Assembly (NCBI GenBank): GCA_951406725.2
Contig: OX597836.1
Location: 42,408,001-42,472,000 of the forward strand
Direction of reading: 5' to 3'
From: Octopus vulgaris
Lineage: Eukaryota
Length of the DNA: 64,000 bases
Positions 4,602 through 62,791 of the stretch are shown here, in pieces. Under the pieces are notes generated by a model that saw only the letters and a program-made list of their open reading frames with translations, ran no database searches and was not told the origin of the DNA. A program made the translations under genes and the position numbers. Position 1 is the stretch's first letter; every line of letters starts with the position of its first letter.

Positions 4602-4922
4602 TTATTCTACAATCTTTAATCGTTGTTGAATGTCGATTTCATATAAATTAGATCTCAGTCCGCAAAGTTTATGAATATAATTCTCTTGAGTACAATTAAA
4701 ATAAAGAATGAAACTCTTGCAATAATGACAAAGAACAGGGATTGAGTCCATGAGGAGTCCAGCCCGTTCTTCATTTCGGTTGAGTTTATCTACCAGGAGT
4801 ATTTTCAAGGACTGGTACTTGGCAATAGCATTGGAATATCGTAGCTTGTGTTTCTCATTTACACTTCGTTTCAATAGTTGTCTTATTTCGTTCAAAAGAT
4901 TCTCCAAATGAATCAGCTGGTT
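4602..4922 (-). CDS. Copy A exon 10 (terminal)
   Basis: TTTTTAG acceptor, phase 0; [10 protein letters not shown]...LKIVE then TAA; same length in copy B. Confidence 0.85.
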   Translation of the reverse strand, partial: NQLIHLENLLNEIRQLLKRSVNEKHKLRYSNAIAKYQSLKILLVDKLNRNEERAGLLMDSIPVLCHYCKSFILYFNCTQENYIHKLCGLRSNLYEIDIQQRLKIVE

Positions 4923-60200: not shown

Positions 60201-62791
60201 CTTGAGCCTTCATCAAACTTTTCCCAATAATGTTTGTATATTTGAGCTTTACCAAATCATTGCTGTGTACATTGTCAATCTGTTGTTTAGTAATTGCCCG
60301 TATTAATTCTTGTACTTGGAAATTCTGTAATTCTAAATCTGAACTGATCAAACCTTGTTCGACAAGTGGCATCAAAACATGCATCTTGGAAGCTGGTTGA
60401 CTAGAAGAACCAGTCATTTCAACAGCTTCCTCAATACCAAATCTTCCAGGAAAATATGAAAGCACTTTGATAGCATCTTGCTGTTCGTGAGAGAGTTGAG
60501 AAAAGTACTTGTCCATTTCTTGCTTAATATTACGTCTGTTAATTGTACATTCGTCCAGCCAGTCATTGAGCTTGGTTTCATCACAAATCATTTTGTAGAT
60601 ATCATTAAAAGAGAAATTATGACGAAACTGGGAGATTTTTTCTGCAAAGTAAATAAGAAGTCCTGGCAGGCCACAGGCATATCTGATGATGTTGTGTATT
60701 TGTTCTTTGTTCTCATCATCCGTCTCAATGTCTGAACAGCGACCGAAAAGAAGCTGGGCATCTTTAATGGACAATGGACTCACTTTACACTTTCCAAACC
60801 TGATTCCATCAAACTGAAATGGTTTTCCACCACTAAATATGAGAATGATTTTTAGATTTGGGTGCAGTGGAAAGTCATTGTCGCAAAGCTCCTGGAAACC
60901 TGGAAGGAAGCTTTCTTGAATGTTCTGGAAATCATCAAAAATACAAATTTTCCATTTCGTATTGGTGATACTAGAACAATTGGTGAATGTATTGTACATG
61001 TTGGAAATATCAGACCAACTGCTATTATTAGAAATATGGATGTGTTTTATGTGGAGTCTTTCGGGGTTGGTTTCATCCTTCAATTCTTGACAGACCTGTC
61101 ATATTAGAAACATAACATTAGAACAAGTTCAAAGATTTCCATAGATTCACTTATTTTATTGGTCTATCACTTTGTCTCTTTCTCTGTCTGACTTTATAAT
61201 TCTCTCTCAATAACTGTCTCTTTGTCTGTTCTTTTATCTATGCATTAGTTCAGGGTATCCTTTATATTCCTTTATATTCATCTTACAGTTTGTCTAAGTA
61301 TCTTTCTGGATAACAGTTTGTCACTTTGCCATTCTATCTCTTTAATTATCTTTCTATTAATTACACAGTTGCTTTATCTCTTTTACTATCCATGTTTTAT
61401 TTCATCTACCTCTCTCTCACTCTCTGTCTATCAATCAATTATTCTTGTGCTTGAGAAGATCTTTCAAATCAAGTGAGATCGTTGTCATGGCTGATGCTGG
61501 TGTTTCGTAACTGGCACGTAAAAAACACCCCTTACACTCTTGCAGTGGTTGGTGTTAGGAGGGGCACCCATCTGTAGAAACCATGTCAAATTAGATTGGA
61601 ACCTGGTGCAGCTCCCCAGCTTACCAGTTTTCAGTCAAACTGGCAGATCCTCTACAGCCAGATGCCCTCCCTCCGGAAACCAAACTTACTTGTTTCCAAG
61701 GAAATATTTCTCTATAGGAAATTTCCATGTAATATTGGAAGTTAACGACATTCATTTACAAGAAATCTACAATGTCAAGCCGAGGAGATGCAAACATACA
61801 CACGCTCACAGATGCATACGTACAGACACACACACACAAACACACATATACACACCTGCCTGCTTACCTACATACTTACATACCTACCTACCTACCTACC
61901 TACCTACCTACCTACCTACCTACCTACCTACATACATACATACCTACCTACCTACATACCTACCTACCTACATACCTACCTATCTACTTACCTACCTACC
62001 TACCTACCTACCTACATACCTACCTACCTACCTACCTACCTGCCTTTCTACCTACCTGCCTGTCTACCTACCTACCTACATACCTACCTACTTACCTACC
62101 TACCTGCCTGTCTACCTACCTACCTACCTACCTACCTACCTACCTACCTACCTACCTACCTACCTACCTACCTACCTACCTACCTTCCTACCTACCTACC
62201 TACCTACCTTCCTACATACCTACCTACCTACTTACCTACCTACCTACCTACCTACCTACCCACCTACCTACCTACACCTTACCTACTTCTACATAATATA
62301 TAAAGCAGTCAAACCTCTCCCAAATTGCCCATCTTCTTCATAACATAGGACAGGATACATTAAATAATATAATCTTTGCCATAGACAGAATGGTTTACAG
62401 GAGAAATACCTTTGATCATAGGTCAACCATCAACTCACCAAATGGTACAAAGACTTCAGTGACTGCCATTGTATGGGATTGAACCAGAAATGCTTTTCTC
62501 TTTAGTCAGTAACTTAACTGTAAAACCTCAAGGATCCCTAATAACCTACAGAAACGCAAAATGCAATAAGGTTAACGTAAAAAAATGAGAAAACAATAGT
62601 AAATTTCTTACAGTTTTCACAAGACTTGTTTTGCCAACATAAGGCAGTCCATAAACTTGTATTATTTGAGTATCTTCATCCTTGATCAAGATCTTCAGTT
62701 TTTCCCTCTCATCATGTCGTCCAACAAAGTGTCTGCCAGAATTGCCTTGCTGTCTCATGTAATTGGGGGGTAATCGATATGGTGTTGCCAT
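44893..62791 (-). CDS. Copy B: 10-exon NB-ARC (STAND NTPase)-TPR gene; 1-bp deletion in exon 4 gives ~502 aa as assembled
   Basis: Exon-by-exon paralog of copy A with the same splice sites, ~90-92% aa identity in exons 2 and 10 by hand count; [27 protein letters not shown]. Confidence 0.85.
48313..49265 (+). mobile_element. Mariner relic (copy B intron 9, same insertion as in copy A)
   Basis: Same TIRs and position; [16 protein letters not shown]. Confidence 0.85.
49510..49774 (-). CDS. Copy B exon 9
   Basis: 265 nt paralog of 7906-8170. Confidence 0.82.
51069..51180 (-). CDS. Copy B exon 8 (intact)
   Basis: 112 nt; [36 protein letters not shown], a TPR-like helix. Confidence 0.84.
51961..52104 (-). 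CDS. Copy B exon 7
   Basis: 144 nt paralog of 11781-11924. Confidence 0.86.
52504..52617 (-). CDS. Copy B exon 6
   Basis: 114 nt paralog of 12345-12458. Confidence 0.85.
53165..53274 (-). CDS. Copy B exon 5
   Basis: 110 nt paralog of 14045-14154. Confidence 0.82.
54179..54325 (-). CDS. Copy B exon 4, frameshifted
   Basis: 147 nt vs 148 nt in copy A; base missing at 54247/54248; shifted frame ends at TGA 54180-54182. Confidence 0.8.
55426..56340 (+). mobile_element. Penelope-like element 3' relic (GIY-YIG endonuclease plus pLTR)
   Basis: [29 protein letters not shown]...VSEH; downstream minimal hammerhead; absent from copy A. Confidence 0.78.
56196..56240 (+). ncRNA. Minimal type I hammerhead ribozyme motif
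   Basis: TGAAC-CTGAAGA-TTGCA..TGCAT-GAAA-GTAC-TA-GTTCA; first stem II pair is a T-T mismatch. Confidence 0.6.
57294..57450 (-). CDS. Copy B exon 3
   Basis: 157 nt, near-identical to 18682-18838, same splice sites. Confidence 0.85.
58237..58509. repeat. Fold-back element with a hammerhead motif in each arm and 3 x 29-bp central repeats
   Basis: Arms are reverse complements; plus motif 58409-58480 and minus motif 58268-58339, both ATAA-CTGAAGA...GAAACTCWGAGTT-TTAT. Confidence 0.75.
58960..59430 (-). mobile_element. Tc1-like transposase relic (copy B intron 2)
   Basis: [17 protein letters not shown]...AEGG motif. Confidence 0.8.
60070..61095 (-). CDS. Copy B exon 2 (NB-ARC core)
   Basis: 1026 nt open frame, GT-AG bounded, paralog of 20028-21053. 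Confidence 0.92.
61855..62287. repeat. (CCTA)n tetranucleotide tract (copy B intron 1)
   Basis: Direct reading. Confidence 0.95.
62612..62791 (-). CDS. Copy B exon 1 (ATG to Walker A)
   Basis: [11 protein letters not shown]...FVGR...[18 protein letters not shown] donor. Confidence 0.88.

Follow-up and report, generated by a model that had tools for sequence, protein, structure and literature searches.

Among STAND proteins an effector domain is general, at least in the sections of the literature cited here (PMC6468293), and animal proteins combining NB-ARC and TPR domains have been described from corals, Nematostella, sea urchin and amphioxus (PMC10236652, PMC2246300, in the portions cited). 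RHIM-related amyloids serve NLR signalling in fungi and an amphioxus RHIM-STAND protein is known (excerpts of PMC10197012, PMC4262963); Apaf-1 is reported absent in molluscs (PMC10959488, as excerpted). Intracellular immune sensing in cephalopods is poorly mapped. The subject here is a pair of genes, copies A and B, in a 64,000-nucleotide (nt) stretch of the Octopus vulgaris genome (the window, G000:C23:42,408,001-42,472,000). They belong to an array of 16 copies, and the reading we favour, at a probability of roughly 0.55, is that its members encode autoinhibited cytosolic STAND-TPR sensors that have no effector of their own, require a partner and would act in immunity or cell death.

The window genes and the array

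Both copies have ten exons on the minus strand (copy A, 22503 to 4602; copy B, 62791 to 44893, in window coordinates), bearing out the first-pass annotation, which had proposed a tandem pair of 10-exon genes of ~858 amino acids (aa); all seven of the motifs it listed are present in each. Every exon of both copies has AG/GT ends. The standard exon lengths (180, 1026, 157, 148, 110, 114, 144, 112, 265 and 321 nt) sum to 2577 nt, i.e. 858 aa plus a stop, and the two coding sequences differ at 98 nt (~96% identity). In the exon list, NBD and HD1 denote the nucleotide-binding domain and helical domain 1, and NTPase stands for nucleoside triphosphatase.

22324..22503, minus strand: copy A exon 1 (Met, 21-aa unstructured N-terminus, FVGR, Walker A GLPYVGKT)
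20028..21053, minus strand: copy A exon 2 (342 aa; rest of NBD with Walker B ICIFDD, HD1 CSLPG, winged helix with LSYFP and VQEL, start of arm)
18682..18838, minus strand: copy A exon 3 (arm / first repeat)
14503..14650, minus strand: copy A exon 4 (TPR)
14045..14154, minus strand: copy A exon 5 (TPR)
12345..12458, minus strand: copy A exon 6 (TPR)
11781..11924, minus strand: copy A exon 7 (TPR)
10967..11077, minus strand: copy A exon 8 (TPR; one base short in the assembly near 11039, likely an assembly error)
7906..8170, minus strand: copy A exon 9 (TPR)
4602..4922, minus strand: copy A exon 10 (capping helices, conserved CxxC, stop)
62612..62791, minus strand: copy B exon 1 (in-frame stop four codons 5' of the ATG)
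60070..61095, minus strand: copy B exon 2 (NTPase core)
57294..57450, minus strand: copy B exon 3
54179..54325, minus strand: copy B exon 4 (one base short in the assembly near 54247, likely an assembly error)
53165..53274, minus strand: copy B exon 5
52504..52617, minus strand: copy B exon 6
51961..52104, minus strand: copy B exon 7
51069..51180, minus strand: copy B exon 8
49510..49774, minus strand: copy B exon 9
44893..45213, minus strand: copy B exon 10 with stop

The exon structure proposed earlier thus stands, but neither copy reads through as assembled, a point then missed: exon 8 of copy A and exon 4 of copy B each lack one base, giving first stops at aa 662 and 503, respectively. The bases missing at 11039 and 54247 are present in contigs of public runs (four of four runs in both cases, and all six listed pieces spanning 54247, one of which otherwise matches exon and intron exactly). 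Their absence probably reflects assembly errors in 858-aa genes; such errors are likely rather than proven, because intact paralogs would look alike and contigs drop rare variants. The same public runs, which were taken as RNA by guess and used as contigs rather than raw reads, provide four splice junctions. One 432-nt contig of run X11 aligns in consecutive pieces to exons 6, 7 and 8 (junctions 6-7 and 7-8), and in run X2 the loose ends at the two borders of exon 4 correspond to the end of exon 3 and the start of exon 5 (junctions 3-4 and 4-5). There are 11 differences between the X11 contig and copy A; the spliced transcripts that the first-pass annotation wished to see are therefore present at family level, and are not attributable to one copy.

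Its suggestion that the array continues beyond the window was correct. A genome search with exon 2 gave 16 matches on C23 at 89-100% and distant matches on C24 and C26, and a search with exon 10 gave 17 on C23, one copy having two. All copies were built from 614 kilobases (kb) fetched around the window, and what emerged was no single-copy housekeeping ortholog, as had been considered, but 16 copies over 582 kb in head-to-head arrangement, with ten on the minus and six on the plus strand. Besides the two window copies there are eight intact ones, two in which exon 1 is missing and four that share a C-run of exon 1 changed by one base. Fourteen of the 16 are young (13-175 nt apart) and two, c15 and c16, are old. 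The closest pairs are copy B and c05 (13 nt differences) and copy A and c07 (25 nt); all others differ by 39-576 nt. The likeness of copy B to c05 lies within one larger feature of the window:

12890..63814, no strand: ~50-kb block, ~99% identical, with interruptions, to G000:C23:42,265,763-42,310,301

This block may be a recent segmental duplication or an uncollapsed allele, copy B and c05 may be allelic, and one or two of the 16 copies may be allelic duplicates. As side observations, copy c11 has two tandem last exons (G000:C23:42,514,770-42,515,645) and in copy c14 the first part of exon 2 is duplicated over 56 nt (G000:C23:42,594,786-42,594,842).

Pfam searches of the whole genome gave no match to NB-ARC and only two to NACHT (C17:46,057,963 and C19:45,022,485, in open frames of 1333 and 781 aa). 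Because of these low counts, the array family may be the main expanded NLR-like family of this genome, and Pfam-based surveys, which would see these two NACHT loci and no NB-ARC locus, would overlook a 16-gene array.

Predicted fold and motifs

An AlphaFold2 model of P0004 (labelled O. sinensis, 91-95% identical in exon 2; alignment of 40 rows) was used as a proxy for the window's own proteins. In this model (predicted local distance difference test score 86, predicted template modelling score 0.76) residues 2-19 are disordered and are followed by the NBD, with a fitting strand-helix order, HD1, the winged-helix domain (WHD) and a helical solenoid. Foldseek ranked PH0952, a STAND-TPR protein, first (E 1.7e-10), then SAMD9 and CED-4. 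In structural alignment (VIA), residues 20-386 match residues 128-543 of CED-4 (Z 23.7, root mean square deviation 3.5, 315 aligned) and a wheat resistosome is matched at Z 23.3; the remainder of the model aligns to TPR proteins such as TONSOKU and LGN. Both features for which this kind of modelling had been proposed, i.e. a STAND fold and a TPR solenoid, are accordingly predicted.

Profile searches point in the same direction. Plant NLRs account for 10 of the 13 matches of the exon-2 profile against the PDB, and TPR_12 is above its cut-off in all six full-length homologs, with Pfam TPR matches at ~aa 455-725. TPR-like helices had been placed over exons 3-10; the TPR arm is upheld, with the amendment that the solenoid spans aa 340-800 in the model and its repeats start late in exon 2 (~aa 340). 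Neither NACHT nor LRR gave a match at E<=0.1 in any of the six proteins, the repeats being TPRs. Pfam NB-ARC and AAA are sub-threshold, with NB-ARC at 15-19 bits against a cut-off of 23.5 in five of six octopod proteins; several bivalve relatives pass Pfam NB-ARC, e.g. P0035 at 43.8 bits, and in the structural alignment and the exon-2 profile search NB-ARC proteins are the best matches.

Walker A (GLPYVGKTS) is present in all 14 copies having exon 1, and Walker B (IFDD, both Asp kept) and the HD1 GxP motif (C[GS]LPG) in all 16. A CxxC in exon 10, after the last repeat, occurs in all 16 copies and in most relatives in the mollusc clade, and is possibly a metal or redox site; the C-terminal 130 aa matched only unnamed or TPR-like Atlas clusters. 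Overall, the octopus proteins are predicted to comprise a CED-4/APAF-1-like STAND core, an arm, a TPR solenoid and a CxxC cap.

Evolution, relatives and genomic surroundings

Synonymous divergence between the young copies and c15 is 0.02 in the NBD and 0.37 in the TPR region; the corresponding values against c16 are 0.02 (WHD) and 0.59 (TPR region). An Argonauta paralog pair is likewise 99% identical in exon 2 and 41% in exons 3-10, a result that rests on predicted proteins and that mis-assembly there could also produce. The exon 2 tree groups by genus, a cross-species clade being rejected (approximately unbiased test, p-AU 4e-89), and that of exons 3-10 rejects an Argonauta clade (p-AU 0.001), with one Argonauta gene joining c16 (92/93, not starred). 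These sequence comparisons show that, in Octopus as in Argonauta, paralogs combine a homogenised exon 2, encoding the NTPase core, with TPR exons that stay divergent. Because the two trees conflict, at least two TPR lineages are likely to be older than the split of these genera, with exon 2 homogenised separately in each. Exon-restricted homogenisation, repeated in two octopod genera, provides a clean case for how receptor arrays keep a common core.

The copies are mosaic, with 15-65% four-gamete-incompatible site pairs per exon, and recombination is heavy. Codon models, run in our own code on the 14 young copies, gave ratios of nonsynonymous to synonymous substitution (dN/dS) of 0.68 for the NTPase, 0.16 for the arm, 0.85 for the TPR region and 0.62 for the C-terminus. 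The best-supported TPR sites, 491 and 659, have four residues each and both fall at repeat position 9, which is ligand-facing according to the cited part of PMC1261162. Taken together, 16 copies, turnover and mosaicism are typical of the evolution of receptor arrays.

The close homologs bear the label 'uncharacterized' and come from Octopus vulgaris, O. sinensis, O. bimaculoides and Argonauta, with several paralogs annotated in the latter three. Named Octopus proteins match at 92-97%, which supports the octopus-like genome proposed in the first-pass annotation. Searching 1.84 billion representatives yielded 20 proteins at E<=1e-30; 16 of the 20 looked up are named, from gastropods, bivalves, Argonauta, a hemichordate, a crinoid and amphioxus. 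A quick tree joins the array clade to further cephalopod-type and unnamed proteins and to a mollusc clade, with a clade of bivalve and deuterostome proteins standing apart. Judged by these relatives the family is old, widespread and not cephalopod-specific; only the array is recent. The first-pass annotation, which had described a recently duplicated cephalopod sensor family, was right about the recency and clustering of the array, and needs qualifying as regards the family, which has members in other molluscs as well as in hemichordates, an echinoderm and amphioxus. In alignment A2 (40 rows, leaving aside TPR-only matches and the long-N-terminus homologs P0027, P0080, P0154 and P0078), N-termini are 2-41 aa long in the 30 of 40 rows having the start motif. 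No description of the family or array was found in the literature searched, supplements not covered, and expression tables may list the genes; the family is apparently unnamed and is missed by standard domain scans in this genome.

Distant paralogs (24-28% identity in exon 2) lie at G000:C24:10,771,000-10,786,000 and C26:35,181,000-35,206,000 (L075-L079), where matching exon-like pieces occur in the same order as in the array genes; the C26 paralog resembles Argonauta P0017.

The array region is dense in repeats. Copies A and B are separated by a Gypsy-type long terminal repeat (LTR) retrotransposon (window 39003-44683, minus strand), with 589-nt LTRs (39003-39591 and 44095-44683, 96.6% identical) and open reading frames (ORFs) having reverse transcriptase, RNase H and integrase domains; relatives of it are found at L034/L035 and L061. 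A PIF1-like helicase fragment (window 16774-17364, plus strand) sits in intron 3 of copy A; it is common to several copies and presumably Helitron-type. Tandem arrays of 171-, 99- and 184-nt units lie at window 24625-25300, 26975-27796, 1289-1638, 19277-19643 and 35661-36028, the 171- and 184-nt units belonging to a dispersed repeat of very high abundance. Eleven of the array copies have a conserved block 3-14 kb upstream, which was considered as a promoter or first exon and rejected, its translation resembling a retrotransposon; we take it to be a non-LTR retrotransposon remnant. The public model P0006, which matches copy A (window 4602-22503, plus ~41.7-42.0 kb), has its N-terminus fused to a retrotransposon pol fragment and is bent round the exon-8 frameshift; it is an annotation artefact mimicking an effector domain.

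Candidate function and comparison with known systems

The octopus proteins begin 21 residues before the NBD, with a low-confidence N-terminus in the model. An in-frame stop lies four codons 5' of the ATG in 11 of 14 copies; in copy A an AG directly precedes the ATG, so that a further upstream coding exon may exist, notably for this copy. No longer close homolog was found among 14 matches of 600-2000 aa, and no N-terminal CARD in a Pfam scan of the octopod proteins or in the P0004 model. Since an effector domain is absent, the octopus proteins alone cannot be complete NLR-type receptors, and a separate signalling partner would be needed. Elsewhere in the family such domains do occur, amphioxus relatives carrying death-type effectors (P0080, DED-NB-ARC-TPR; P0185, DED-NB-ARC-TPR-Death). 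Two limpets have an N-terminal RHIM-like motif: Lottia P0027 at residues 29-46 (RHIM being the sole Pfam match in its first 80 aa, E 0.021, 14.8 bits, below the cut-off of 20) and Patella isoform X1 (P0179) at residues ~10-28. Patella isoform X2 (P0022) is without it, which suggests an effector switched on or off by alternative start. The limpet N-termini bear on the age of amyloid-based death signalling in animals. Long C-terminal tails in which Pfam has no match are found in many of the mollusc relatives.

On the sensor reading, and by analogy with the general STAND switch as set out in part in PMC6468293, the core would be kept shut by the arm and TPRs until a ligand binding in the TPRs opened it for nucleotide exchange and oligomerisation. 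The oligomer would then recruit a separate helper or adaptor, leading to defence or cell death; this is the weakest step. Gene conversion, by keeping the cores alike, could let one partner, or mixed oligomers, serve many TPR specificities. The putative immune role is deduced from the relatives and the dynamics of the array, and the family provides concrete candidates for NLR-like receptors in octopus and bears on the reported loss of Apaf-1 in molluscs.

A number of observations weigh against this proposal. The motif order recognised earlier as NB-ARC holds as a STAND (NB-ARC-like)-TPR architecture, yet two signature residues are missing: the Arg of the sensor-1 (RNBS-B) hhhTTR motif, all 16 copies having [LF]SGG where the profile aligns to TTRD of Roq1, and the His of the MHD motif, where all 16 read VQE (as in the VQEL noted before), VQQ or VQV. 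The MHD column was placed by position, not by alignment to plant NLRs; so placed, it keeps His in 12 of 40 family rows. The absence of this Arg and His suggests a modified switch. No effector domain was found at either end of the octopus proteins, and no partner gene adjoins, the 20 scanned of 123 listed array ORFs matching transposon families or nothing. Nor was a RHIM-like motif found in the octopus proteins or a RHIM exon in the array region; matches of the RHIM-exon search in the 614-kb region looked repeat-derived, and one weak match lies elsewhere, on C6. The RHIM core is itself short (chance expectation 1.3, against 2 seen among 202 proteins) and is notable only because both limpets have it at the N-terminus. 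Since no other exon is long, the homogenisation of exon 2 may merely reflect tract length, and the high-identity block of the oldest copy extends from only 96 nt before to 23 nt after this exon; the long homology tract is the simplest cause, selection for compatible cores a possible one. Model M2a is preferred over M1a in the NTPase (p 0.003) as well as the TPR region (p 0.005), a signal that recombination and assembly errors inflate. Positive selection is weak and not confined to the TPRs, and within these the groove shows no significant excess of variability over the remaining positions (permutation p 0.14-0.36).

We consider it unlikely that the proteins are instead non-immune STAND-TPR scaffolds, or self or stress sensors in the manner of NPHP3 or MalT, with the expansion serving dosage or tissue specialisation. 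Such a role would accommodate the absent effector domain, the strong purifying selection on the arm (dN/dS 0.16) and the single distant paralogs of the same layout on C24 and C26; some bivalve relatives are auto-named nephrocystin-3-like, although NPHP3 Pfam matches are far below cut-offs. It fits poorly with the death-fold and RHIM-like N-termini of relatives, and with the high turnover and mosaicism of the copies.

It is likewise doubtful that the 14 young copies reflect a largely neutral birth-and-death expansion, by unequal crossing-over under relaxed selection, in which only a few old lineages (c15-like, c16-like) matter and the switch is possibly degenerate. The invariant Walker A, the two Walker B Asp residues kept in all copies and the strongly constrained arm speak against decay, even if dN/dS is 0.6-0.85 outside the arm and the sensor-1 Arg and MHD His are lost. 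Two copies without exon 1, one with a duplicated last exon, the repeat-dense region and the lack of groove enrichment would suit neutrality; however, internal stops are absent from all copies except via single-base indels, four of them in one C-run, and family transcripts are spliced.

That the array is mostly an assembly artefact, i.e. uncollapsed haplotypes of a few genes, is very improbable: the copy B/c05 pair in its ~99% block, the copy A/c07 pair and single-base indels suggesting imperfect polishing are outweighed by the wider spacing of all other pairs, by copies on both strands with different introns, and by the annotation of multiple paralogs in O. sinensis, O. bimaculoides and Argonauta; no more than one or two copies look allelic.

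The favoured sensor reading can be extended, very tentatively, to the proposal that molluscs keep a CED-4-like STAND-TPR family signalling death via interchangeable N-termini (DED in amphioxus, RHIM amyloid in limpets), of which octopods would have a sensor-only array, with an NTPase exon kept uniform by gene conversion and many TPR specificities feeding one shared helper. If true, this array would be an animal parallel of plant sensor/helper NLR networks and of fungal amyloid NLR signalling.

Compared with bona fide animal NLRs, defined as NACHT-LRR proteins in the cited part of PMC3879445, the octopus proteins share the tripartite logic and tandem, lineage-specific expansion; having neither NACHT nor LRR, they are not members by that definition. 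With fungal amyloid NLRs and RHIM-STAND receptors (PMC10197012, PMC4262963, in excerpt) they have in common a STAND core and TPR sensor, and limpet relatives have a RHIM-like N-terminus, unlike the octopus copies, which have no such motif; in the cited passages the example of an animal RHIM-STAND protein comes from amphioxus and is drawn with a NACHT-type domain, and no mollusc is named. The core and arm of CED-4 and APAF-1 superimpose on the octopus model (Z 23.7 over 315-335 residues), whereas the octopus protein has no CARD, has TPRs rather than WD40 repeats, and is without the sensor-1 Arg and MHD His; by architecture the family is not an Apaf-1 orthologue.

The NB-ARC-TPR proteins of corals, Nematostella, sea urchin and amphioxus have the same domain order, and coral NB-ARC proteins mostly have TPRs, so far as the cited sections of PMC10236652 and PMC2246300 describe them; the likeness to coral lies in domain order. 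By contrast with octopus, N-terminal effectors are usual in these proteins, and gene conversion is described as rare in coral tandem arrays (PMC10236652, in the part cited), whereas exon 2 is homogenised in octopus. PH0952, of MalT type (PDB 6mfv; PMC6468293, as excerpted), is archaeal and has an N-terminal DNA-binding effector, where the octopus protein is effector-less with a CxxC cap; at ~15% identity the two nevertheless share the order NBD-HD-WHD-arm-TPR, with a profile match at E 2.7e-28.

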